Origin: Patescibacteria group bacterium
Lineage (GTDB): Bacteria > Patescibacteriota > Minisyncoccia > Phycocordibacterales > Phycocordibacteraceae
Assembly (NCBI GenBank): GCA_040384705.1
Contig: JAZKIU010000001.1
Location: forward strand, 229,675 to 293,674
Reading direction: 5' to 3'
DNA length: 64,000 bases
Numbering within the stretch: the stretch's first letter is position 1; the number at the start of each line of letters is the position of its first letter. Shown piece by piece: positions 2,146 to 59,738 of the stretch. The notes beneath the pieces are model-generated. The model was not told where the DNA came from. It searched no databases and saw only the letters and a list, made by a program, of their open reading frames with translations. Position numbers and translations under genes: made by a program.

Positions 2146-2191
2146 CATGTGACTCGGGTGTATGCTTATTGCAGGACAGAGGGAGACGGCA

Positions 2192-2476
2192 ATGGATACA
2201 AACAAGCTGGTATTCGAGCAGTTCGGTCCCGACATAGGCAATGGTCGGAGGCAGTACGACATCCGCGTCGAAGCACATTCGCTAGCGACCTTCCCAGAGA
2301 CAGACGTGCTCAAGGGGCTGTATGAGTATTCTTCCATCGGGGCTCCGGGTAGTGAACTCATCGTAGTACGCAGGAACGGTGTCGCGATGATCGTAGAGAT
2401 GCCTGCTCGCCTACAGGACTACCAGGTGCAAGCGTTCGTGCGAGCCGTCGAACGAGAGACGTATTTCACGGGGTAA
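2192..2476 (+). CDS. Hypothetical small protein, about 94 aa
   Basis: A ribosome-binding site GAGGGAG sits 6 nt before ATG 2192. The gene is convergent with the polymerase gene. No family is recognised. Confidence 0.4.
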   Translation: MDTNKLVFEQFGPDIGNGRRQYDIRVEAHSLATFPETDVLKGLYEYSSIGAPGSELIVVRRNGVAMIVEMPARLQDYQVQAFVRAVERETYFTG

Positions 2477-2509
2477 AGAGCGGCTGCACGTAGCCGTTCT
2501 TATCATTTC

Positions 2510-3841
2510 CTAGTACACGTCGCCGAGCATCGGGAGCGAGAAGAGCTTCGGTCGCTTCTCCGCCTTGAAGAGCGAGGCCGGGCGGTACTTCGACATGCTT
2601 CCGATACCACTCCCGTCCGCGGATTGCTTCCGTGCCTTTACCGACTTCGCGCTCGAGCCAAGGTATATCGTGTCGCGGCCGTATTTCTCGGTGAGCTCGT
2701 CCACGTGCTCGAACAGCTGCGAGACCGCGTCATTACGGCCCGGCACGCTGAATATATCGAGCTGCTCGGGCTTCGCCTCGCGCAGTCCTGTGAGCGTGAT
2801 GCCGGTGGTGCGGTACCTGGTTCCTGTGCGATATACCTTGGCGAAGAACGGTTCGAGCGCATGGAGTATCTCGCCCGGGACGCTGGTCGGGCGGGGGAGC
2901 ACGAGGGTGTGCGTGCGATAGCGGAACTCGGATGACTTCAGGAAGAAGGAAAGACCGGTCGCGATGAGGTTATACCGTCTGGCCTTGCGGCACGCTCCCT
3001 CGATGTTCTTGGAAAGCTCCGAATACAGAAGCGAGGCGTCCGCGCTCGCCGGGCTGAAGGTCCGGGTCCTCTGTATGGAATGGTAGTCATCTTTCGTCTC
3101 GGTTACCAAGGGGAATACGAATTCACCGTTCAGCTCCCGCCACAGCTCGTGGATTGGTTTCGTTACCCGAGCACGCACCCATGCCTCGTCCTTCCGTGCG
3201 AGTTCGAGCGCGGTAGAGACGCCATGCTTGCGCAGCAATGCGCCCGTGTTCGGCCCAATGCCCCACACCTTTTCCACCGGGACCGTGGTCAGGAACTGAT
3301 CCTTCCCGAGAAGGGGAATGGCGGTGAATCCGTCGGGCTTCCTATAGTTGGAGCCTATCTTCGCGAGAACCTTCGTGCAGGAGAGCCCGACGGAGAACGT
3401 GATGTCGAGCTCCTGGAACAAATCCTTCTTTATTGAAAGCGCTATTTCCTCGTACGACTTGTTGAGCGTGCGACGGAGCCCGGTAATGTCCCCGAAGCAT
3501 TCATCGATACCGTATTCCTCTACCTCGGGTGTATATCGCCGCATTATCTCGTACATGCGGAGCGAGTAGAGGGTGTAGAGCTGATAGTCGGAGGAGATGA
3601 TGATCGCGTCCGGGCATATTTTCTTCACGTCCTTGAGCGGCACGCCGCGCGTGATGCCGCGGGCCTTCGCTTCATAGGTCGCAGCCGACACGATGCCGCG
3701 TTCCTTGCCGGTTACGACCGGTTTCCCGCGAAGCGATGGGTCCCGTGCCACCTCGCATGCGGCGAAGAAGCCATCGCCGTCGACATGAACGATCGCTCGG
3801 GGATAGTAGTAATTCTTACCCCACCCGACTTCGGTTGGCAT
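2510..3841 (-). CDS. Y-family DNA polymerase (UmuC/DinB-like translesion polymerase)
   Basis: The N-terminus AIVHVDGDGFFAACEVARDPSLRGKPVVTG matches the UmuC/DinB motif I. Palm and little-finger architecture follows. It lies directly downstream of lexA on the same strand. Confidence 0.85.
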   Translation of the reverse strand: MPTEVGWGKNYYYPRAIVHVDGDGFFAACEVARDPSLRGKPVVTGKERGIVSAATYEAKARGITRGVPLKDVKKICPDAIIISSDYQLYTLYSLRMYEIMRRYTPEVEEYGIDECFGDITGLRRTLNKSYEEIALSIKKDLFQELDITFSVGLSCTKVLAKIGSNYRKPDGFTAIPLLGKDQFLTTVPVEKVWGIGPNTGALLRKHGVSTALELARKDEAWVRARVTKPIHELWRELNGEFVFPLVTETKDDYHSIQRTRTFSPASADASLLYSELSKNIEGACRKARRYNLIATGLSFFLKSSEFRYRTHTLVLPRPTSVPGEILHALEPFFAKVYRTGTRYRTTGITLTGLREAKPEQLDIFSVPGRNDAVSQLFEHVDELTEKYGRDTIYLGSSAKSVKARKQSADGSGIGSMSKYRPASLFKAEKRPKLFSLPMLGDVY

Positions 3842-3958
3842 AGGAGAAGTTCCAGAAACGACGAGTCGGCTTCCGGGACACGCGGCGGAGCACGCGCTCG
3901 AAGCTACCGAGCTGATAGAGGGCGGGGGACATGGTTCGGGTAGTCATAGTTGTGGTGG

Positions 3959-4525
3959 TTAGTATTTGCGCACGACGGCGGTGACAACGGCTTCTATTGA
4001 AAGTTCTCCCTTGGGGTAGATCGGCTTGTACGCGGCGTTCGCAGGCTCGAGGAAATAGGAATCGTTCTTCTTGCGGAGATACTTCATCGTGTACTCGCCC
4101 TCGATTGATGCGATGACTATCTGGCCTGGCTTGTAGGTAGGATGGCGTTCGACAATGACGAGGTCGCCCGGACATATTCCCGCATCTATCATCGAGTCGC
4201 CCTTCACCTTGAGGATGTAGCTCGATTCCTTGTGCGGTGTGAGGTATTCATCGAAGTCCATGACGTCGAGGAGCTCCTCTTCTGCGGGCGACGGGAACCC
4301 GGCCTCGACGAGGCCGAGAAGGGGGGCACCTCGCATGAGCCTGCCGGGAATGATATGTCCTTCGCGATCCTTCTCGACGACGCCCGCCTCCACTAGCTTG
4401 CCTATGAGCTTGTACACGGCGTTCTTCGATTTGAAGCCGGTAAGCGCCATAAGCTCCTTGTAGCCCGGCATGCGCTTATGCCGCTCGTAGAACCCCGTTA
4501 CCTTCTTCTTGTACTCATCGAGCAT
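3959..4525 (-). CDS. lexA: LexA-like repressor with a winged helix-turn-helix and an S24 peptidase domain
   Basis: It has an HTH (KELMALTGFKSKNAVYKLIGKLVEAGVV) and an S24 domain with the catalytic GDSM and K motifs (KGDSMIDAGICPGDLVIV). The start is trimmed to the Met at 4525, which sits 16-27 nt downstream of a GAAC-N4-GTTC box. Confidence 0.85.
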   Translation of the reverse strand: MLDEYKKKVTGFYERHKRMPGYKELMALTGFKSKNAVYKLIGKLVEAGVVEKDREGHIIPGRLMRGAPLLGLVEAGFPSPAEEELLDVMDFDEYLTPHKESSYILKVKGDSMIDAGICPGDLVIVERHPTYKPGQIVIASIEGEYTMKYLRKKNDSYFLEPANAAYKPIYPKGELSIEAVVTAVVRKY

Positions 4526-4540
4526 AGTTTCAGTATAGGT

Positions 4541-4552
4541 GAACTCTGGTTC
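4541..4552. promoter_or_regulatory. Cheo-type SOS (LexA) box GAACTCTGGTTC
   Basis: A perfect GAAC-N4-GTTC palindrome lies immediately upstream of the lexA start codon. Confidence 0.6.
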
Positions 4553-4640
4553 ACCTGCAAGGAAACGTGGGGATAAGCATTCATCCATCCTTAATACGCC
4601 GCCTCGTATGGTGTCTTCATACTCGTAAGCACATCCATAT

Positions 4641-4820
4641 ATGGCCGACCCAGACCAGCTCCGTGACGATGCTGACCGTGCAGAAAGCGATGCCGCCGAG
4701 ACCGCAGAACAGCTTCGCCAAGCAGCGGAAGCAGCAGAAGCTGCTGAAGAAGCAGAACGACAAGCACGGGAGGAACGGGAAGAAGCGGATAGGCAGGCAG
4801 CTGCTGCGAACGACGGTTAA
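4641..4820 (+). CDS. Possible small acidic Ala/Glu-rich protein (59 aa) running divergently from lexA. Speculative.
   Basis: An ATG-to-TAA ORF missing from the track because it is under 60 aa. A strong bidirectional terminator follows it. There is no good ribosome-binding site and the sequence is low-complexity. Confidence 0.25.
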   Translation: MADPDQLRDDADRAESDAAETAEQLRQAAEAAEAAEEAERQAREEREEADRQAAAANDG

Positions 4821-4832
4821 TCTCTAGATAAG

Positions 4833-4870
4833 AAGAAAGCCTCGGCACCTTAGTGCCGAGGCTTTCTTTA
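4833..4870. terminator. Bidirectional rho-independent terminator between the small ORF and the acrB-like gene
   Basis: Hairpin GCCTCGGCAC-CTTA-GTGCCGAGGC with an A-run before it and a T-run after it. Confidence 0.7.
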
Positions 4871-4878
4871 CGAGTGAA

Positions 4879-7800
4879 TTACGCCACCGGAGCGAGAGGC
4901 TCGTCCTCCTTCGCGAAGCGCGCCTTCACCTCCTTGCCCGGCCAACGATGGTAGAGGACCGGGATGAGGATGAGCGTGAGTACCATGGAGAAGGAGAGGC
5001 CGAACATGATGGCGACCGCGAGCGGTCCCCATATCGCGGAGGCGAACGAGAGCGGGATCATACCGACCACGGTCACCACCGTGGTGAGGATGATAGGGCG
5101 GAAGCGCGATGAGGCCGCTGCGACCACGACATCGGTGAGCGTCTGGTTCGGATTGCTGCGGCCGATACGCGCGATCGAGTCCATGAGAATGATGGCGTGA
5201 TTGATGATGACGCCCGCGAGCGCGATGACGCCGAGCATGGACGGAAGCGAGAGCGCGGCTCCCGTGAGCATGAGGCCGAACAGAACGCCGATGAGCGAGA
5301 ACGGGATGATGGAAAGGAGATAGAAGGAGTGGCGGAAGGAGTTGAACTCGAGCACGAGGATGCCGAGCATGAGCGCGGCTCCGGCGAGGAGCGCGAGGCC
5401 GAGCTCCGCGAACGACTTATTCACGTCCTCGCTCTCGCCACCGATCTTCAGGTGCACGCCTTCAGGAAGCTGCTCCGCTTCGAGCTGCTTCTGGAACGCT
5501 TGGGATATCTGTATAGGATTCGCGCCGGTAGCGGCGTCCGCGGTGAGTGTCGAGATACGTGTCCCGTCCTCATGACGGATGACGGTGTTCGCTGGTTCGT
5601 ACGATATCGCAGCGATGGTGCCGAGCGGCACAGGGCCGCGCGTTCCGGGAACGGTGAGCTCACGCACCGCGTCGATGGTGACGTGCGTGGTTTCGGAAGG
5701 ATCGCGGTATGCCGGATTGAGATCGAGGCGCGTGCGCACTTCGATATCATCGTCTCCAGTGCGTATGTCGGTCGCCTTCGCGCCATAGAGCGCGGTACGG
5801 AGCGTGTCCGCTACCACGAGCGGGGAGACACCCTGCTCTGCCGCCTTCGCGGTATCGAGCTTCACCACGAACTCCGCACTATCGTCCCTCGTGCTCGTGT
5901 TCACGTTAGTCGCGCCCGGTATGGTTCCGAGGATACGTGCGCCTTGGTCCGCAGCTTCGGTAAGCGCGATGAGGTCATCGCCCTCGAAGGTGACGGAAAC
6001 TGCTGCGGACGTTGGAGGACCCCCTGACGGCTCGGACACGGTGACGCGCGCCGATGTGATAGGGCGCATCTTCGCGCGCAGCTCATCGACTATCTCCGCG
6101 CTCGTCTCCTTCCTGTCTTCCTTATCAACCAGGTTCACGGTGATATTGCCGGCGCGACTGCCTGAGAGCCCGCTCTGCGCGAAGTAGCTACCCGAGCCCA
6201 CCTCGGTCACGAAGGACTTGATGCGTGCATCGCTATACAGGAGTTCCTCGACCTCGCGTACCGAGAGATCGGTCTCCGAAAGTGCTGTGCCCTGCGGCTT
6301 CTCCACCTCGACCGTGATGATGCCGGAGTCCTCCCCTGGGAAGAAGACGACCTTCACCGCGCCGACCATAGGGAGGGCGAGCGACACGACGAGCAGGAGC
6401 GAGATGCCTATGAGGAAGCGGTTCTCTTTCTTCTTGTCGCCGAGAATGCCGCGAAGGACACGTTCGTACCATTCCTTGGCACGCTTGTTGTATTCCTCCT
6501 GGCGCTGCTCGAGCTTCGAGAGGGAAGGGCGGATGATGTACATCGACAGGAGCGGAACGAACCCGAGCGCCACGAAGATGGAGGCGAGAAGCACGAAGAT
6601 AACGGTGTAGGGAATCGATGCGAGGTACTTACCGACGATGCCCGAGATGAAGAAGAGCGGGACGAACACGGCGATGGTTGTGAACGTACCAGCGAACAAA
6701 GGCCATGCGTATTCCTTGATAGCAGCGCGCGCGGATTTCTCCTTATCGCCGTTCTCGACGAAATGCGTATGAATGGCTTCCACCACCACGATGCCGGAGT
6801 CCACGAGGATACCGATGGCGAGGATGAGCGAGAAGAGCGATATGAAATTGATCGTGTTGCCCGACGCCGCGATGCCGATGAACGCGATGAGGAAGGAGAG
6901 CGGGATGGAGGCTGCCGCTGCGAGCGACTCGCGCCAGCCGAGCGTGAAGAAGAGCATGAGCATCACGAGCGCGATGGTCTCGAGGCCGACGTTCGTGAGC
7001 TCGGTAAGGTCATGCTGCACGTCTTCCGACGCGTCGTACGAGATGACGGTCTTCGTTCCTTCAAGCGTCGTGCTCTCGAGCTCCTTGAGCTTCTCCTTCA
7101 CCTTGTCGCCCATCTCGACGACGTTCCCGCCGCGGCTCTTGAATACGGATATGGAAAGCGCGGGCGCTGACGGCGCACCTTCAACCGAGACGCGCGAATG
7201 GGTGACGGCATCCTCAAGACCATCGACCACCTTCGCGACATCGCGGACATGGAGCACGCTACCGGAAGGCCCCGCAAGCGCGATATTCCCGACCTGCTCG
7301 GTGCCTGAGAGTCCCGCTTCAAGACGGACCGCGTACGCGATGTCGTCGACGGTGATGGAGCCGAGCGGGGAGGCGACGCCCGATGCGCGTATCGCGTTTG
7401 TGACGTCGGAAAGGGAAAGTCCGTACTGACGGAGCTTGGACTGCTCGACGATAACGTCCACCTGGCGCTCGCGGACTCCTGAAAGCGCGACCGAAGAGAC
7501 GCTCGGCACGCGCTCGAGCTCGTCCTTCACTATGGTGCCGACCGCAGTCAATTCCGCAGGGGTGAGCTCGCCCGCGATCGAAGCGATGATTATAGGCTGG
7601 TCCGCGAAGTTCACGTCGGTGACCGAGGGATCCTCGGCTTCGGTAGGGAGCTCAGGGCTCACCTTGTCCACCTCGTCCTTGAGGAGCTGGATGGACTTGT
7701 CGATATCAGCCGACGCCGCGAACTCGACCGTGATAGAAGAGACGCCCTCGCCGGAAGTGGAAGTCACCTTCGTAACGTTCTCCACGCCCAGTACCCGGTC

Positions 7801-13314: not shown

Positions 13315-13371
13315 TGCGGCCTTCATTGTGGTTGAGCTTTACTAACTCTCTTATCCACTAGCAATAACCGC

Positions 13372-13943: not shown

Positions 13944-16202
13944 ATGCTGGGTGCAATGAAACGGCGTATCATCGCGATCTCATTCCTGGCCGCCCTTATC
14001 GTCGCTCCGACTGCGCACGCGGCTACGACCGAGGAGTTGCTCTCCCTCATACATACGCTGCAGGCGGAGCTTTCTGCGCTTACAGCCAAGATAGCCACTA
14101 CGATTACGCCGCCTGTCATCACTCGCACGCTCGATGTTGGTGCGGAAGGAGCGGACGTAGTCGCGCTCCAGGCATACCTCAAGGCGCTCGGCTTCTATAC
14201 GCACCCGACAACGACGGGCTTCTTCGGTCCGGTCACGCAAGCGGCGGTCACTGCATACCAGCAAGCCAACGGACTTCCGGGGGTCGGCGCAGTCGGGCCA
14301 CTCACCATGGCGAAGCTAGCTGGAGTATCGCCAACTCCTCCGCCACCCGCGAATTACGTAGCTGATGCTCCGACGAAGAAGCCTGCTTCACGAGATCGAG
14401 GACACGGCGGGTCTGCTGCGGAGGAAACACCTATTCCTGTTACTCTCGCCACTCTCACACTTTCCGCTTCCACCATTGTCGAGAACAGTCCGGCGGACAC
14501 GGTCGTCGGTACGCTCCAGGGCACCACTACCGGCTCGACTCTTTCCCTCACCGACACGGCAGGCGGTCGCTTTAAGGTTGTGGGCGACGTCGTCATGACG
14601 GACTCGACCGTGACTGACTATGAGACGACGGCCTCGCACAACATCACCGTCCGCGAAACATACGCAGGCGCGACCAATACGCCGCTCGATACCATTCTCT
14701 CTATTACCGTCACGAACACTGCGGAGGGAACCCTTTCGGCGCTCACACTTTCCGCTGCAACGGTGCCTGAGAATAGCGCGGCCGATACGGTGGTGGGAAC
14801 CCTGCAAGGCACTACTACGGGCTCGACCCTCTCTCTCACCGACTCCGCGACCGGCCGCTTCAAGCTGGTAGCGGGAGTCATCTTGACTGATTCCGTCGCT
14901 ACCAATTACGAGAGCGCGACTTCACACAGTATTACCGTCCGTGAGACCTATGCGGAGGCCGCCAATTCACCACGCGATACCATACTCGCTATCACCGTTA
15001 CGAATGTCGCGGAAGGGACGCTCTCGGCTCTCACTCTTTCTGCTTCCACTATCGCGGAGAACAGCCCAGCGGACACGGTCGTCGGAACGCTCCAGAGCAC
15101 GACCACCGGCTCCACCCTCTCTCTCACTGACACTGCGAGCGGCCGCTTCAAGCTCGTCGGTGGGGTCATCCTTGCTGACTCTGTCGCTACCGACTATGAA
15201 GGTGCGACTTCCCACAACATCACTGTTCGTGAGACATATGCAGAAGCCTCCAACTCACCGCGCGATACCACGCTTGCCATCAGCGTGACCGATGTATACG
15301 AAGCAACCTCGGCCGCTCGCTGGCGCGTGCGTGTGTATGGCGCTCAAGGGCTCGATGGAACCACCGGAGCCGGGGCGCACTCGATTGCCGAACTGAAGTT
15401 CATGACGAGCGCAGGCGCAGGTGCGCAACCAACCACTGGTACTCCTATTTCAAGCAACGATGGCGGAGGCGGGGCAAAGGCTAATGCATTCGATGGCTCG
15501 AACTCGACGTATTGGTACGACGGCGCTAACGCTGACTCATGGCTCGGCTATACCTTCGACAGCGCAGTCGCCATCACCCACGTCAGCATGACCTCGCGCG
15601 ATTCGTTCTATCAGACCCCGAAGACATTCTTCGTTGAATATTCCACGAACGGCGGCTCGAGCTGGAATACGGCAGCGTACATCGTGTCGTCGAACTGGAC
15701 GGCAGCGGCCCAGACCAAGGTCGTATCGCTCGCAACCGCCTACCCAAGCAATGACCTGTCGGCGCTCGATGAGCCGGGCGGCTACCGCTATTGGGCAATA
15801 AAGGCGAAGAGCCCGGGTTCGTACGCTGGAAGCTTCAACGCGAATCAGACGGACATCCTGCTCAAGAGGAATGGCACGAGTATCGGGCCTGACCAGCATG
15901 CCAATCGTGGGCTCAATGCGACGGTGGTGAACTCGACGCCATTCAATAACGTCACCGGCGACAACTATTGGTACTTCGGCGCAGCAGACCAGTACGTGAT
16001 GGTCGACTTCGGGTACAAGCGCGTCGTCGACCAGGTGGGTGTGCTCGTGCGCAGCGGTTTCCCATCCCAAGCACTCCGGTACTACGAGGTATGGGCGGGC
16101 AACAGTGCCTTCACGCTCGCTTCCATGTCGCTCATCACGACCGTGGACGATAATACTGGTACGCCAACGGGAGGAACCGCGCATCTCTTCAGTATTCCTT
16201 AA
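13944..16202 (+). CDS. Secreted surface protein. It has a signal peptide, a PG_binding_1-like domain, three tandem 96-aa cadherin-like repeats, and two C-terminal F5/8 type C (discoidin)-like domains.
   Basis: The signal peptide is followed by ALQAYLKALGFYTHPTTTGFFGPVTQAAVTAYQQANGLPGVG, which is the peptidoglycan-binding motif. The repeat region is near-identical. The C-terminus has a carbohydrate-binding-like beta-sandwich. Confidence 0.8.
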   Translation: MLGAMKRRIIAISFLAALIVAPTAHAATTEELLSLIHTLQAELSALTAKIATTITPPVITRTLDVGAEGADVVALQAYLKALGFYTHPTTTGFFGPVTQAAVTAYQQANGLPGVGAVGPLTMAKLAGVSPTPPPPANYVADAPTKKPASRDRGHGGSAAEETPIPVTLATLTLSASTIVENSPADTVVGTLQGTTTGSTLSLTDTAGGRFKVVGDVVMTDSTVTDYETTASHNITVRETYAGATNTPLDTILSITVTNTAEGTLSALTLSAATVPENSAADTVVGTLQGTTTGSTLSLTDSATGRFKLVAGVILTDSVATNYESATSHSITVRETYAEAANSPRDTILAITVTNVAEGTLSALTLSASTIAENSPADTVVGTLQSTTTGSTLSLTDTASGRFKLVGGVILADSVATDYEGATSHNITVRETYAEASNSPRDTTLAISVTDVYEATSAARWRVRVYGAQGLDGTTGAGAHSIAELKFMTSAGAGAQPTTGTPISSNDGGGGAKANAFDGSNSTYWYDGANADSWLGYTFDSAVAITHVSMTSRDSFYQTPKTFFVEYSTNGGSSWNTAAYIVSSNWTAAAQTKVVSLATAYPSNDLSALDEPGGYRYWAIKAKSPGSYAGSFNANQTDILLKRNGTSIGPDQHANRGLNATVVNSTPFNNVTGDNYWYFGAADQYVMVDFGYKRVVDQVGVLVRSGFPSQALRYYEVWAGNSAFTLASMSLITTVDDNTGTPTGGTAHLFSIP
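14440..15305 (+). repeat. Three tandem copies of a 288-nt (96-aa) in-frame repeat inside the surface protein gene
   Basis: The motif ctcacactttccgct recurs at 14454 and 14742 with a 288-nt period. The protein repeat TLSASTIVENSPADTVVGTLQGTTTGSTLSLTD... recurs three times. Confidence 0.8.
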
Positions 16203-16273: not shown

Positions 16274-17938
16274 ATGACCCAGAGCGAAGCCTTGCAAGTA
16301 CTCAAGACCGGAGCGAACGTTTTCCTTACCGGAGAGCCTGGTAGCGGCAAGACGCATACCATCAATGAGTACGTGAAGTGGCTACGCTCTCATGCAATCG
16401 AGCCATCCATCACGGCGTCGACCGGCATAGCAGCGACCCACATCCACGGCGTGACCATCCACTCCTGGAGCGGCATCGGCATCGCGGAACGCCTCACCGC
16501 GGACCTGCTTGAGCGCGTCTCGCAGAAGGAGCATGTGGTGAAGCGCATACAGCGCACGGACGTGCTCATCATCGACGAGGTCTCCATGCTTTCGGGCGAT
16601 GTCCTCACGATGGTGGACGCGGTCGCTAAAGAAGTCAGGCGCCGCGAGGAACCATTCGGCGGCATGCAGGTGGTGCTCGTGGGCGACTTCTTCCAGCTGC
16701 CTCCGATCGGGAAGGTGGGGCGGCCCTCGGCGTTCGCATTCGAGAGCCCGGCGTGGCCTGCGCTCAATCCGATCATCTGCTACCTGCATGAGCAGCATCG
16801 TCAGGAGGACGGGGCGTTCCTCGATCTCCTTGGCGCCATACGCACGAGCTCCTGGGACCACACGCACGTCTCGCTCATCACGGCGCGCGAGACCGACGGC
16901 GAAGGGCTCGATGAGGACATTCCCCAGTTGTATACGCATAACGCGGACGTAGACCGGATAAACGAAGGGAAGCTCGCAGCGCTTCCAGGCAACGGGAAGC
17001 GCTTCACGATGACCGGCCAAGGGGCTCCCATGCTCATCGAGGGCCTCAAGCGCGGCTGCCTCTCGCCTGAGACCCTCGTGCTCAAAGAAGGTGCGGTCGT
17101 GATGGCGACGAAGAACAATCCTATAGCGGGATACGCGAACGGTACGCTCGGTATCATTACTGGCTTCGAGCGCGGTACTAGCTATCCGATGATAGAGACA
17201 CGCGACGGAAGGGAAATAACGATAGCGCCCGCCGAGTGGGCGGTAGAGGAGGGCGGGAAGGCGCGCGCCAAGATAATGCAGGTGCCGCTCCGCCTCGCCT
17301 GGGCCATCACGGTGCATAAGAGCCAGGGAATGAGCATGGACGCAGCCGCTATGGACCTCTCACGTTCGTTCGAGTATGGACAAGGGTACGTAGCGCTCTC
17401 TCGCGTGCGTACGCTCGCCGGGCTCTCCCTTCTCGGCTGGAACGAGAACGCGCTCAATGTGCACCCGGGAGTGGCAACCAAGGATAAGCTCTTCCGCGAG
17501 CTATCCGAGCAAGCTGCCGTCGCGTTCGGTCTTCTAGAAGAGAGCGGAGAACGTACGACAATGGAGCAGAATTTCATAAAGGCATCAGGCGGCTCGCTCG
17601 AGGTGCGTGACGCATCCATCGCGAAAGTGAAGCGCAGCACGTATGACGAGACGTACGATCTCCTCAAGGAAGGGAAGACAATCAATGACATCAAGGCGCT
17701 GCGCGGGCTTACACTCGGCACCATTGCCGACCATCTGCAAAAGCTGAAGGAAGCAGGGCGGATAACTACAGACGAGGTACAGGATCTGCTTCCTGAAGCG
17801 ATCATCGACGGGCTCCCTAAGATATTCGTCGCCATGAAGGCGGTGGGGAGCGAGAAGCTTGCGCCGATATATTCAAAACTCAAGGGAAAGTATACGTACG
17901 ATGATTTGAAACTCGCACGTGTCGTCTACGAAGAATAA
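16274..17938 (+). CDS. PIF1/RecD-family ATP-dependent DNA helicase with a C-terminal helix-hairpin or HTH-like domain
   Basis: It has Walker A TGEPGSGKTH, Walker B DEVSML, and GDFFQLPPI motifs characteristic of the Pif1 family. The C-terminal roughly 100 aa form a helical domain. Confidence 0.8.
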   Translation: MTQSEALQVLKTGANVFLTGEPGSGKTHTINEYVKWLRSHAIEPSITASTGIAATHIHGVTIHSWSGIGIAERLTADLLERVSQKEHVVKRIQRTDVLIIDEVSMLSGDVLTMVDAVAKEVRRREEPFGGMQVVLVGDFFQLPPIGKVGRPSAFAFESPAWPALNPIICYLHEQHRQEDGAFLDLLGAIRTSSWDHTHVSLITARETDGEGLDEDIPQLYTHNADVDRINEGKLAALPGNGKRFTMTGQGAPMLIEGLKRGCLSPETLVLKEGAVVMATKNNPIAGYANGTLGIITGFERGTSYPMIETRDGREITIAPAEWAVEEGGKARAKIMQVPLRLAWAITVHKSQGMSMDAAAMDLSRSFEYGQGYVALSRVRTLAGLSLLGWNENALNVHPGVATKDKLFRELSEQAAVAFGLLEESGERTTMEQNFIKASGGSLEVRDASIAKVKRSTYDETYDLLKEGKTINDIKALRGLTLGTIADHLQKLKEAGRITTDEVQDLLPEAIIDGLPKIFVAMKAVGSEKLAPIYSKLKGKYTYDDLKLARVVYEE

Positions 17939-35220: not shown

Positions 35221-35904
35221 ATGAGCCAACTTCCGATGCTCGATCCTAAGTTCGAGGAACGAAAGGAGCGGATGGGGAAGATACTCGCGTATCTCAAGAA
35301 GACCTATCCAGTCCCCAAGACCGAACTCAACTATTCCACCCCATTCCAGCTGGTCGTCGCGGTCATTCTCTCTGCGCAGTGCACGGACAAGAAGGTGAAT
35401 GCTGTCACGGAGACGCTTTTCAAGAAATACAGAACAGTCGAGGATTTCGCGAACGCTGACCCTGGCGTATTCTCCCGCGAGACCTCGAGCATCACGTTCC
35501 ATCAGAGCAAGACGAAGTACATCTTGAGTTCCGCACAACTCCTCCTTGATGAGTTCGGTGGGGAGGTGCCCAAGACGGAGCCCGAGCTCGTGAAGCTTCC
35601 GGGTGTCGCGTACAAGACCGCGCATGTGGTGCTCGGCGAGTTGTATAACATCTGGGAAGGCATACCGACCGATACGCACGTGCGGCGCTTCGCTATTCGC
35701 TTCGACTTGGTGGATAGCACCGAGCTCACGAAGATATCGAAGGAGCTCGAGGCCTTGGTACCCAAGAAGGATTGGCGGTACGTGAATAATGGTCTGGTGC
35801 TGTATGGCCGCTACGTCTGCACTGCTATCCCGCACCCCTGCGAGGATCATCCGTTGACGAAGATATGGCCTCCGGCCGCCCTTGTCTGGCCCAAGGCGAA
35901 GTGA
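35221..35904 (+). CDS. nth: Endonuclease III (HhH-GPD DNA glycosylase)
   Basis: It has HhH-GPD motifs (LPGVAYKTAHVVLGE, catalytic K/D region). The C-terminal Cys ligand region is CTAIPHPCEDHP. Confidence 0.85.
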   Translation: MSQLPMLDPKFEERKERMGKILAYLKKTYPVPKTELNYSTPFQLVVAVILSAQCTDKKVNAVTETLFKKYRTVEDFANADPGVFSRETSSITFHQSKTKYILSSAQLLLDEFGGEVPKTEPELVKLPGVAYKTAHVVLGELYNIWEGIPTDTHVRRFAIRFDLVDSTELTKISKELEALVPKKDWRYVNNGLVLYGRYVCTAIPHPCEDHPLTKIWPPAALVWPKAK

Positions 35905-36667: not shown

Positions 36668-36922
36668 ATGACAAAGAAACTCTACAGAAGCCGGGAGAAT
36701 AAGATGATCGCCGGGCTCTGCGGCGGCGCAGGCGAGTATCTGAACGTCGACGCGAACGCCATCCGACTTGTCTACACGATAGTCACCGTCCTTACAGGTG
36801 TTTTCCCCGGAATCATCGCGTATATCCTCGGAATCTTCATCGTGCCTTCAGAGCCTCTCATAACTCCTGTCACACCAGCACCTGCTCCGGACACCACGGA
36901 GGATGACACCATCAACCTTTAG
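36668..36922 (+). CDS. PspC-domain membrane protein
   Basis: RSRENKMIAGLCGGAGEYLNVDANAIRLVY is the PspC domain, followed by one TM helix. A TATAAT -10 element sits at 36652-36657. Confidence 0.7.
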   Translation: MTKKLYRSRENKMIAGLCGGAGEYLNVDANAIRLVYTIVTVLTGVFPGIIAYILGIFIVPSEPLITPVTPAPAPDTTEDDTINL

Positions 36923-37712
36923 GGCTCTCATCTGGAAGCATTACCGCACGCAGGGCAGGCATGACCTGCCGTGGCGGAAAACCACGGATGCATACCGAAT
37001 CCTCGTCTCCGAAGTAATGCTCCAGCAGACGCAGGTGGAGCGCGTCATTCCATACTATAAGAACTTCCTCAAGGAGTTCCCGACAGTCGTTGCACTCGCG
37101 AAAGCGCCCCTGTCCTCTGTTCTACGACAGTGGCAAGGGCTCGGATACAATCGTCGCGCCAAAATGCTGCATGAAGCAGCTAAAGTCGTGGTACGCGAAC
37201 ACAAAGTAAGAATGCCGACAGACATAATCGTGCTGGAATCCCTGCCAGGCATTGGTCCATACACGGCTCGTGCCGTCGCGGCGTTCTCTTCGAACACGGA
37301 CAGTATTTTCATAGAAACAAACATTCGGACGGTCATCACGCACCACTTCTTTCCGACGAAGGAAACTGTCTCGGATAAAGAGGTGCTCGAAGTACTTAAC
37401 AAGGCATATCCGAAAGGGAAGGCGCGGGAATGGTATGCAGCCCTCATGGACTATGGCTCGCATCTAAAGCGAAGCGGCGTCCGCATCAACGCAAGAGCGA
37501 AGGGATACACGAAGCAATCAAGATTCGAGGGTTCAGAACGCCAAGCGCGTGGCGCCATACTCCGCGCCCTTCTATCCGGGCCCAAAACGAAGAAAGCCCT
37601 CATAGGACTTCTTGGAATAGAACGCCAACCCCAGATGGAGTCTGCCCTTGCAAAGCTTACTCAGGAAGGCTTGGTGGCAAGGACTGGGACAAGGTTCTCC
37701 CTGCCTGGGTAG
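36903..37712 (+). CDS. MutY/Nth-family HhH-GPD DNA glycosylase lacking both the Fe-S cluster loop and the C-terminal NUDIX domain
   Basis: The N-terminal LIWKHYRTQGRHDLPWRK, ILVSEVMLQQTQVERVIPYY and LPGIGPYTARAV motifs match the MutY catalytic domain. The C-terminus has no Cys. Confidence 0.7.
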   Translation: MTPSTFRALIWKHYRTQGRHDLPWRKTTDAYRILVSEVMLQQTQVERVIPYYKNFLKEFPTVVALAKAPLSSVLRQWQGLGYNRRAKMLHEAAKVVVREHKVRMPTDIIVLESLPGIGPYTARAVAAFSSNTDSIFIETNIRTVITHHFFPTKETVSDKEVLEVLNKAYPKGKAREWYAALMDYGSHLKRSGVRINARAKGYTKQSRFEGSERQARGAILRALLSGPKTKKALIGLLGIERQPQMESALAKLTQEGLVARTGTRFSLPG

Positions 37713-44047: not shown

Positions 44048-44210
44048 GGCTGGTTCTCCCAGTGGCCAAATTGACGTTACTGAAACTACTATACACATTA
44101 CTTACATATATGTCAAGTATAGAAACTGGGAAGCCATACGCGCATGTAAAATCCAGCTTTTCTTTATGTTTGACGGTGCGCAATGAATTCATATACACTG
44201 TGGATAACTT

Positions 44211-44232
44211 TTAACGCCGTTTTGCGCGTTAA
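44211..44232. promoter_or_regulatory. Inverted repeat TTAACGC-N8-GCGTTAA in the AT-rich groES upstream region. It is a candidate heat-shock operator and is not canonical CIRCE.
   Basis: Perfect 7-bp arms lie 54-75 nt upstream of the groES ATG. The surrounding 240 nt are unusually AT-rich. Confidence 0.3.
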
Positions 44233-44285
44233 AAAGGGAATTCATGTTCACCCGTTACTAACCGCCTAAGCGATATCTTTTCTTT

Positions 44286-44588
44286 ATGGCAAAAGCAGAA
44301 AAACTTTCCATCCAACCGCTTCACGACCGTGTGGTCGTCAAACCCGCTTCTCGTGAAGAAGTCTCCGCCTCAGGCATCATCATCCCGGACTCGGCCAGCC
44401 GAGAAAAGCCGGAGCGGGGAACCGTTGTCGCCGTCGGCTTAGGCCGATACGAAGACGGCGACCTCATCCCCATGACCGTTAAGGTCGGCGATACCGTCCT
44501 CTTCTCCAAGTACGGCTTCGACGAAGTGAAGATAGACGGCACCGAGTACTTCATTCTCTCCGAGTCAGGTATCCTCGCCATCATTTAA
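44286..44588 (+). CDS. groES: Co-chaperonin GroES
   Basis: It is 100 aa and carries the mobile-loop and canonical Cpn10 motifs. Confidence 0.95.
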   Translation: MAKAEKLSIQPLHDRVVVKPASREEVSASGIIIPDSASREKPERGTVVAVGLGRYEDGDLIPMTVKVGDTVLFSKYGFDEVKIDGTEYFILSESGILAII

Positions 44589-54329: not shown

Positions 54330-54520
54330 AGAATTTATCCACAGGTTGTCAACAGTTTTGGACTTCATTGACGCCTCATATACCGAGTGCCACAATTCAT
54401 CACAGGTACACATGGTACGGCGTCCATGCATAATGGATGCGGTGAAGTTCGGCGCGATGGGCTCGCGCAACAGGATTTTTATCAAGCGTTACGCAGACGT
54501 GCGCACTTAATCCATTACCC

Positions 54521-59366: not shown

Positions 59367-59706
59367 ATGTATAGCGGACCCGGGCCATAAGCCGAATTCT
59401 GTACTCGTGTCTCCACGAGCGATGACCATCTATCTGGGACTATCGTTACCGATAGCCTCGAGCGGCGCTCCCCGAAGGGCACGGCCTTGCACAGTGGTAA
59501 GGATTTAGCCGTTTCAATCCCGCATCTCGGCGGGCCTGGCCCCGAAGGGCCTCCTTGGCTTTCGCCGCGGACGTCTCTGTTCGCACCTCGCGCCTTGCGG
59601 CGGACGGGCGTTACCCGCTACCGTGCTGCCGCACGAATGCGGCCTGTGTTCGGACTTTCCTCTACGCACCTTGCGGTACGCAGCGATCATCAGACCCGGG
59701 TCCAGA
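59365..59706 (-). ncRNA. rnpB: RNase P RNA, bacterial type A
   Basis: The minus strand carries P4 elements GAGGAAAGUCCG and ACAGAAUUCGGCUUAU. It also has GGGUAACGCCCG (P8/P9-like) and GUGCGAACAGAGA. P1 pairs GGACCCGGGUC with GGCCCGGGUCC. The length is about 340 nt. Confidence 0.85.
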
Positions 59707-59709
59707 TGG

Positions 59710-59738
59710 ATTATACGACACTATGACTTTTCCACAAC
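59710..59738 (-). promoter_or_regulatory. rnpB promoter (minus strand: -35 TTGTGG, 17-nt spacer, -10 TATAAT)
   Basis: The consensus -10 hexamer sits 7 nt upstream of the P1 5' end. Confidence 0.6.

Follow-up and report, generated by a model that had tools for sequence, protein, structure and literature searches.

A predicted LexA-controlled SOS operon with a DinB-like polymerase gene and a conserved micro-ORF on the chromosome of a bacterium of the Candidate Phyla Radiation

Bacteria of the Candidate Phyla Radiation (CPR) have tiny genomes and few regulators, and the locus described here raises the question of how such a cell might control a gene for mutagenic repair. It lies near one end of a 64,000-nt stretch of DNA (the window) from contig JAZKIU010000001.1 of a Patescibacteria group bacterium, and contains a gene for a LexA-type repressor, lexA, followed on the same strand by one for a Y-family DNA polymerase. 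We consider, with a probability of about 0.85 and on the strength of sequence comparisons, that it is a chromosomal autoregulated SOS operon of a Kaiserbacteria/Paceibacteria-type CPR bacterium, composed of lexA, a 43-codon micro-ORF and a dinB-like polymerase gene. Dozens of relatives, the most distant with about 50 % LexA identity, share the operator-like box, its position and the order from lexA to the polymerase gene. The open reading frames (ORFs) of the initial annotation are all found where it had placed them, and its pairing of a LexA with a Y-family polymerase on the same strand agrees with the S24 and IMS domains found in the two products; its two-gene cassette, nevertheless, has to be redrawn, because a conserved micro-ORF of 43 aa sits between both genes. 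The elements of the predicted operon and of its promoter are:

4568..4576, minus strand: DnaA-box-like 9-mer TTATCCCCA, identical to TTATCCACA at 8 of 9 positions; the -35 hexamer follows 7 nt later
4555..4560, minus strand: putative -35 hexamer, TTGCAG, read from the sequence (TTGCAG, TTGACT or TTGACA at this place in relatives)
4538..4555, palindromic: putative LexA operator (SOS box), a perfect 18-nt palindrome, GGTGAAC-TCTG-GTTCACC (GGTGAACTCTGGTTCACC)
4532..4537, minus strand: putative -10 hexamer, TATACT, read from the sequence (TATACT or TATGAT in relatives)
3959..4525, minus strand: lexA, coding for a 188-aa repressor with an N-terminal winged helix-turn-helix (HTH) and a C-terminal self-cleaving S24 domain
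3816..3947, minus strand: micro-ORF, coding for a basic product of 43 aa, MTTRTMSPALYQLGSFERVLRRVSRKPTRRFWNFSYANRSRVG
2510..3841, minus strand: gene for a Y-family, DinB/Pol IV-like translesion polymerase of 443 aa, with its acidic catalytic residues intact

The first gene codes for a divergent LexA that has a winged HTH, an S24 domain, a cleavage site and a catalytic dyad. The deduced product matches Peptidase_S24 (PF00717) with 97 bits, for a cut-off of 23.3, and a profile of 23 homologues aligns with residues 25–197 of E. coli LexA and 15–195 of T. maritima LexA, the HTH region included. Residues A75, G76, S111 and K148 are invariant in all 23 homologues, and the motifs that contain them, VEAG (A75-G76), GDSM (S111) and TMKYL (K148), align with A84-G85, S119 and K156 of the E. 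coli protein. In an AlphaFold2 model, the N-terminal domain comprises three helices and a two-strand wing, with a predicted local distance difference test score (pLDDT) of 80–89, and the C-terminal domain is rich in beta strands; the top structural matches of this model are full-length LexA proteins, namely E. coli LexA bound to DNA, the Thermotoga protein and LexA on the RecA filament. The ORF track extends the gene over 3959..4588, and the initial annotation was right in moving its start from 4588 to 4525, because most homologues are 188 aa long and begin at the equivalent methionine. The closest homologues (72–98 % identity) come from groundwater and soil metagenomes, and those that carry a name belong to Candidatus Kaiserbacteria or Paceibacterota, both within the CPR. 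The organism is thus a CPR bacterium and not a Gram-positive one, as the type of box had seemed to hint. The box flanks, GGTGAAC..GTTCACC, are specific to this clade. The main relatives of LexA from outside the CPR in the genome scan (L035–L073) are betaproteobacterial, from Gallionella, Sideroxydans, Nitrosomonadales and Methylophilaceae, with 35–42 % identity; they fit the published non-canonical GAAC-N4-GTTC LexA of the Gallionellales, which hints at gene transfer between the groups.

The Cheo-type box, GAAC-N4-GTTC, that had been placed 16–27 nt before the lexA ATG is indeed present, as the 12-mer GAACTCTGGTTC at 4541..4552, counted from the ATG at 4525, and it forms the core of the 18-nt palindrome. 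Read in the sense of lexA, the promoter has the order TTATCCCCA - 7 nt - TTGCAG - GTGAACCAGAGTTCACC - TATACT - gaaact - ATG. The 17-nt spacer that separates the -35 and -10 hexamers is taken up by the palindrome, so LexA bound there would block its own promoter. Gene lexA has no Shine-Dalgarno sequence and, because the -10 hexamer ends only 6 nt ahead of its ATG, its mRNA is probably leaderless.

We then compared this arrangement across 66 CPR loci whose LexA shows at least 50 % identity (numbers such as L001 designate the loci of relatives). Fifty of them have, no more than 150 nt away from lexA, a palindrome of the form G[AT]AC-N4-GT[AT]C, mostly GAAC-N4-GTTC. Among relatives ranging from 100 % to ca. 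51 % LexA identity, the arms of the operator are invariant, its four-nucleotide spacer is variable and its distance to the start of lexA is fixed, with 14–16 nt between the end of GTTC and the lexA start in 41 of 53 loci; two main flavors of the box occur, GGTGAAC..GTTCACC and TAGAAC..GTTCTA. The GAAC-N4-GTTC sequence is the LexA motif reported for Firmicutes, Actinobacteria and Gallionellales (PMC4951493), and lexA and dinB are core targets of LexA across phyla (PMC8565304).

Most of the remaining loci contain the sequence GGTGAAC-N4-GTTCAC farther away, 190–440 nt upstream of lexA, where it precedes a small gene that is followed by lexA. This small gene, preceded by the promoter and box that otherwise stand before lexA, was seen in L012, L014, L018, L023, L024, L026 and L028, as well as in L029, L031, L032, L102, L104 and L106, in a range of ca. 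60–440 nt upstream of lexA. It codes for a conserved product of 61–78 aa, with the consensus ..EI..LN..ID.KII.G..Y..EARRHK.L.. and then a hydrophobic C-terminal tail, which makes it a candidate SOS-induced small membrane protein. In the loci where lexA occupies this second position, an adjoining polymerase gene is usually absent.

The polymerase matches IMS (PF00817) with 152 bits and IMS_C (PF11799) with 62.7 bits, and its match to IMS_HHH (PF11798), of 24.3 bits, is marginally under the cut-off of 24.4. Its best NCBIfam and PDB matches are to DNA polymerase IV (E = 7.5e-40 for PDB 7yll and 1e-31 for E. coli DinB). Segment HVDGDGFFAACE is matched by HVDMDAFFASIE of a solved Pol IV, and GIDECFGD by its SIDEAYLD; these segments comprise the catalytic Asp/Asp/Glu residues and the aromatic steric gate; in the alignment with 7yll, the best match among solved structures, HVDGDGFF is paired with HVDMDAFF and IDEC with IDEA. 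Comparison with family models, which had been proposed as a check, thus places the protein in the Y family, with Pol IV ahead of UmuC: the UmuC model gives 151.7 bits, for a cut-off of 431, and is outranked by seven Pol IV models. Near the C terminus, members of this polymerase family share the sequence [RK]-L-x-[LI]-P-x-[LI]-G-[ED]-V, present in the window as KLFSLPMLGDVY, which resembles beta-clamp-binding motifs of the QLxLxL type and may be one of them.

The micro-ORF starts with an ATG at 3947, 11 nt past the lexA stop codon, and its end, at 3816, overlaps the start of the polymerase gene by 26 nt. It is found directly after lexA in every relative with a LexA identity of at least ca. 83 %, in about ten independent copies of 33–73 aa, and its motif appears nowhere else in ca. 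170 loci read in six frames. The amino acids of the SFERVL core (part of SFERVLRR) are invariant, with variation in 8 of 9 third codon positions, and pairwise comparisons yield 106 synonymous versus 27 non-synonymous codon differences. Since the amino acids are fixed while third positions vary, it is very likely that the micro-ORF is translated and subject to purifying selection. An exhaustive profile search in 1.84 billion representative proteins retrieved its own family only, plus repetitive proteins, and there was no match in Pfam or PADLOC. Two other interpretations of this stretch were discarded. A GAGC-N4-GCTC sequence inside the SFERVL codons was considered as a second operator or an RNA motif, and its palindrome is not maintained, with variation at third positions; likewise, a fusion of the micro-ORF with the polymerase by frameshifting was rejected, as ca. 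10–150 nt of non-coding sequence separate both ORFs in five relatives. For the same reason, its end being 10–150 nt before the polymerase start in those five, the micro-ORF is more than a device for translational coupling.

A polymerase gene on the same strand directly follows lexA in 42 of the 57 CPR loci with enough downstream sequence, and in about a quarter of these loci LexA has no adjoining polymerase. The distance between both genes ranges from -36 to ca. +1200 nt, with about half of the values at 12 nt or less and several overlaps. In the window, this gap spans 117 nt, in which neither a box nor a site resembling a promoter or a terminator was found, nor any stable structure. The idea that lexA and the polymerase gene share one operator therefore gains indirect support: with no such site in the gap and a conserved gene order, a single operator for both genes is the simplest reading, and they are probably co-transcribed. 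Since the micro-ORF is embedded in this operon, its product is expected to appear along with LexA and the polymerase. None of the three ORFs has a Shine-Dalgarno sequence and they lie close together or overlap, an arrangement that suggests translational coupling.

These features are compatible with the following cycle. A LexA dimer would bind GGTGAAC-N4-GTTCACC and keep RNA polymerase off the lexA promoter. After DNA damage, the activated RecA filament (RecA*) would induce self-cleavage of LexA between Ala75 and Gly76, by means of the Ser111/Lys148 dyad, and the promoter would then open to produce one mRNA, probably leaderless, from which new LexA, the basic micro-protein and the translesion polymerase would be made. 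The polymerase, recruited by its C-terminal clamp-binding-like motif, would copy past lesions, and fresh LexA would close the promoter again. The binding of LexA, the dependence on RecA and the leaderless start are all predictions deduced from the sequence.

Several observations weigh against this interpretation. The -35 hexamer is weak, with 3 of 6 matches to TTGACA, and falls below the reach of the consensus promoter and terminator scanner, whose own thresholds left undetected both the lexA promoter and a strong hairpin at 4832..4868. Neither recA nor uvrA is present in the 64-kb window, which thus offers no second SOS gene with a box for comparison. The score of LexA with the NCBIfam lexA model (TIGR00498), 104.9 bits, is under the cut-off of 110.95; the UmuD model scores it equally well, with 106.8 bits for a cut-off of 110; and the Pfam domain LexA_DNA_bind was undetected in the protein, even at E = 10. 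The polymerase, in turn, is under the cut-offs of all ten models, those of every Pol IV equivalog included, the best score being 221.9 bits versus the 371 required (NF002751); as Pol IV models are still its best matches, we designate it as a divergent DinB-like polymerase.

The sequence pattern itself could in principle be fortuitous, with the palindrome arising by chance as an inverted repeat, or forming a hairpin in RNA, and having no role as an operator. In the window, bare GAAC-N4-GTTC is in fact not enriched, with three occurrences versus 1.05 expected and a count of three reached by 9 of 100 shuffled sequences; the other two, at 15390 and 36306, are inside genes and were taken as chance. 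Because the count of the 12-mer alone is not above chance, the significance of the palindrome rests on its position and conservation. The 18-mer has no second copy in the window, not even with two mismatches allowed (0.21 expected), and it is the pattern of conservation, with arms kept, spacer variable and promoter position fixed in dozens of loci down to ca. 50 % identity, that refutes a chance origin, to which we attach practically no weight. The cassette might alternatively be a module of a prophage or integrative element, comparable to a repressor with rumAB or umuDC, instead of the SOS regulator of the host. S24 repressors beside Y-family polymerases are common on mobile elements, and the upstream neighbors of lexA differ among close relatives (a resistance-nodulation-division (RND) pump, a P-type ATPase, a sensor protein or an M23 peptidase). 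Nevertheless, there are no integrase, phage or defense genes nearby, a DoxX gene is conserved beside the polymerase gene, the window is a housekeeping stretch of chromosome, and the same LexA family with the same operator appears in dozens of genome and metagenome contigs of Paceibacteria/CPR type, making a mobile origin very improbable. A further proposal concerns the polymerase, which could be a catalytically dead protein of the ImuB type, from an imuA-imuB-dnaE2 cassette: ImuB carries the IMS fold and is often controlled by LexA and linked to lexA, and a lexA-imuA-imuB-dnaE2 operon has been reported (PMC4951493). This proposal is excluded by the intact catalytic motifs, HVDGDGFF and IDEC, aligned with those of an active Pol IV, and is likewise contradicted by the best models, which are of Pol IV, and by the downstream genes, which are a 104-aa ORF and DoxX instead of imuA or dnaE2; we regard it as already refuted, with a negligible chance of being correct.

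An additional role for LexA, not incompatible with the former, has a better standing, even if we judge it unlikely: after its cleavage, the LexA-like protein could double as a UmuD'-like partner or manager of the adjoining polymerase, in a fused module of the lexA/umuD-umuC type. The two scores mentioned above are suggestive here, as the 106.8 bits with the UmuD model correspond to the C-terminal domain and the 104.9 bits with lexA to the whole protein, and both UmuD and UmuD' match strongly in structure and in sequence. Moreover, the S24 gene is immediately upstream of the polymerase gene, as in umuDC, with stop and start codons overlapping in many relatives (gaps of -36 to +12 nt), and E. 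coli UmuD is described as a manager of both DinB and UmuC (PMC3901139). However, the polymerase is DinB-like and not UmuC-like (221.9 versus 151.7 bits), and the quarter of CPR loci without an adjoining polymerase indicates that the pairing is not obligatory. An autoregulated SOS operon of lexA, the micro-ORF and the dinB-like gene thus remains our preferred reading, with or without this second function.

The lexA promoter contains another sequence worth attention, the 9-mer upstream of the -35 hexamer. It is one mismatch away from TTATCCACA, which is the DnaA-box consensus (PMC8203912), and the copies of the closest relatives are degenerate as well. Among 67 distinct CPR lexA promoters, TTATCCACA is found within positions -40 to -5 relative to the box as an exact match in 12 and with up to one mismatch in 33, always in one orientation and never in the reverse. 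The background of exact matches in the same loci is ca. 1e-5 per position, which leads to binomial P values of about 1e-30 (exact) and 6e-63 (up to one mismatch). The gap between the 9-mer and the -35 hexamer falls into three classes, of about 0–1, 7–10 and 19 nt, spaced by roughly one turn of the helix, which is the pattern expected of a protein that contacts RNA polymerase. The 9-mer of the lexA promoter may be a binding site of DnaA. The window contains further TTATCCACA-like 9-mers with zero or one mismatch, intergenic and facing downstream genes, at 54335..54343, 13351..13359 and 59728..59736; in this genome, the element may be a site of more general use near promoters. Joint regulation by DnaA and LexA is described for the E. 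coli uvrB and recN promoters (PMC8203912; PMC6015884). Like the CPR promoters, these are SOS promoters in which a DnaA-box consensus is adjacent to a LexA operator; in the CPR, by contrast, the site belongs to the promoter of lexA itself, has a single orientation and is in helical phase with the -35 hexamer.

A second element is exclusive to the relatives. A hairpin of ca. 130 nt precedes the polymerase gene in L001 (L001:6742-6885), L006 (L006:4562-4705), L169 (L169:2978-3120), L171 (L171:3120-3262) and L003 (L003:4672-4815), with the micro-ORF, or lexA, on one side and the start of the polymerase gene on the other; it is absent from the lexA-polymerase gap of the window. Its core, CGTACT-N4-AGTACG, is conserved and its outer stems covary, and RNAalifold predicts 40 pairs, 22 of them with compensatory double changes. 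The 3′ arm ends 3–10 nt before the polymerase ATG, and the hairpin could mask the start of translation of this gene. A search of Rfam found no real match in the region of the cassette or in the hairpin of the relatives.

On the other side of the SOS box there are a divergent ORF and a hairpin, and a weaker hairpin is found at the opposite end of the cassette:

4641..4820, plus strand: acidic ORF of 59 aa, rich in Ala, Glu and Asp (MADPDQLRDDADRAESDAAE...), divergent from lexA
4832..4868, both strands: strong hairpin, by fold energy; possible two-way terminator
2476..2501, both strands: weak hairpin just past the polymerase stop codon; possible end of the operon, with low confidence

Only the possibility of a 59-aa ORF had been raised, and there is now evidence of coding. 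Positional homologs are present in four related lineages (L163, L164/L165, L001/L002 and L169/L170), with the pattern M-x-PDP...EEAA..A...AAEA...EAD, and 14 of the 17 substitutions that separate the ORF from that of L163, the closest relative (98 % LexA identity), are synonymous and three are non-synonymous; two of the homologs have a good Shine-Dalgarno sequence. The ORF is absent from the close relatives L083, L166, L168, L003 and L171 and from all the more distant ones examined; it has no match in Pfam, PADLOC or NCBIfam, and a profile search recovered one protein only. It thus appears to be a real, patchily distributed and lineage-specific small gene. Its co-regulation by the SOS box, also suggested earlier, looks geometrically unlikely: as the box is inside the lexA promoter, ca. 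95 nt upstream of the acidic ATG, LexA bound to it would not obviously block a divergent promoter. No convincing sigma-70 promoter could be defined upstream of the acidic ORF. A sequence, TTCAY-N5-6-CTTAAT (plus sense, 4580..4597), with a TAnnnT hexamer 10 nt further on, is conserved between the SOS box and the ORF in the window and in L163, L164, L001, L169 and L166, and may belong to its promoter or serve as another site of protein binding.

The hairpin at 4832..4868 folds with -31 kcal/mol on both strands (z = -8.0 for plus and -6.0 for minus), in agreement with its description as a strong bidirectional terminator. As evidence for the acidic ORF it does not count in the window, because it would also terminate a convergent RND transporter gene, with a stop at 4879. 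A hairpin follows each of the homologs of the ORF, those of L001, L164 and L169 among them, and in L001 there is no convergent gene to share it. The weak hairpin past the polymerase, at 2476..2501, has -10.3 kcal/mol on the minus strand (z = -1.4) and -17 kcal/mol on the plus strand (z = -3.1).

Taken together, these elements could make the CPR lexA promoter more than a simple autoregulated switch, with a DnaA-like site feeding replication status into the SOS response, with the 43-aa basic and 59-aa acidic helical micro-proteins, both specific to lineages of this Kaiserbacteria subclade, acting as new factors that modulate LexA, RecA, the beta clamp or the polymerase, and with the hairpin of the relatives masking the polymerase start. 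We offer this composite proposal as tentative and consider it rather doubtful as a whole. If it were true, a lexA promoter in which a phased DnaA-type site accompanies the LexA operator would reveal how CPR cells couple replication status to mutagenic repair, and the orphan micro-proteins of the operon, if real, would add to the picture of replication-repair coupling in these bacteria. For annotation, the value of the locus is in the correct start of lexA, the operator and two small genes that gene callers easily miss.

The surroundings of the cassette are those of an ordinary chromosome, with GroES/GroEL, BipA, RNase J, MurJ, YceG and RNase P RNA, the latter being a bacterial class A RNA at 59372..59703 on the minus strand with 120 bits, above the gathering score. 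The polymerase gene is followed in the window by an unclassified convergent ORF of 104 aa (2162..2476) and then by the DoxX gene. In the close relative L164, a gene for an AlkB-like 2-oxoglutarate-Fe(II) (2OG-Fe(II)) oxygenase follows the polymerase gene on the same strand (L164:6036-6557), and would extend the damage-response operon. Other genes of DNA metabolism in the window, coding for a PIF1-type helicase (16274..17938) and two HhH-GPD glycosylases (35221..35904 and 36903..37712), have no upstream match to the SOS box with up to three mismatches. The only other intergenic site with up to two mismatches to the box, GGGAATTCATGTTCAC at 44236..44251, precedes groES (44286..44588) and is probably due to chance. 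Also upstream of groES there are an exact TTATCCACA (minus strand, 44199..44207) and an inverted repeat, TTTTAACGC-N7-GCGTTAAAA (44209..44233), which could be a heat-shock operator or a terminator.

Cassettes of this type are already known, both as lexA-dinB operons elsewhere and from work on the SOS network of the Patescibacteria. Sanchez-Osuna, Barbe and Erill reportedly carried out, in 2017, a comparative study of that network (Environ Microbiol 19:3465, cited in PMC8565304), which concerns the same superphylum and the same subject, the LexA-controlled, damage-inducible genes of CPR genomes; the cassette described here is most likely an instance of the network catalogued there. It shares with the LexA (DinR) of Firmicutes and Actinobacteria and their Cheo box the operator dyad and its spacing, the autoregulation and the two-domain architecture, and departs from them in the GGTGAAC..GTTCACC flanks, in an N-terminal domain too divergent for LexA_DNA_bind, in the CPR host and in the inclusion of lexA in an operon with a polymerase gene. 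A motif of the GAAC-N4-GTTC type is also reported for the non-canonical LexA of the Gallionellales (Sanchez-Alberola et al. 2015, as cited in PMC4951493). That group belongs to another phylum, and any polymerase matches in those loci are weak, with 26–30 % identity, and situated at least 500 nt downstream. The E. coli umuDC operon (Pol V) and Acinetobacter UmuDAb are similar to the CPR cassette in that an S24 self-cleaving protein is encoded just upstream of a Y-family polymerase, with a LexA-type operator; however, UmuD lacks a DNA-binding domain, whereas the LexA described here has an HTH, and the polymerase here is DinB-like and not UmuC-like. A further parallel is that of Geobacter sulfurreducens, for which Jara et al. 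(2003, listed in PMC4951493) are said to have described the operons lexA1-dinB1 and lexA2-dinB2, in which lexA is autoregulated and shares a transcript with the dinB that follows it, with differences in the operator sequence and in the phylum, and we know of no micro-ORF in the Geobacter operons comparable to the one conserved between lexA and the polymerase gene in the CPR cassette.

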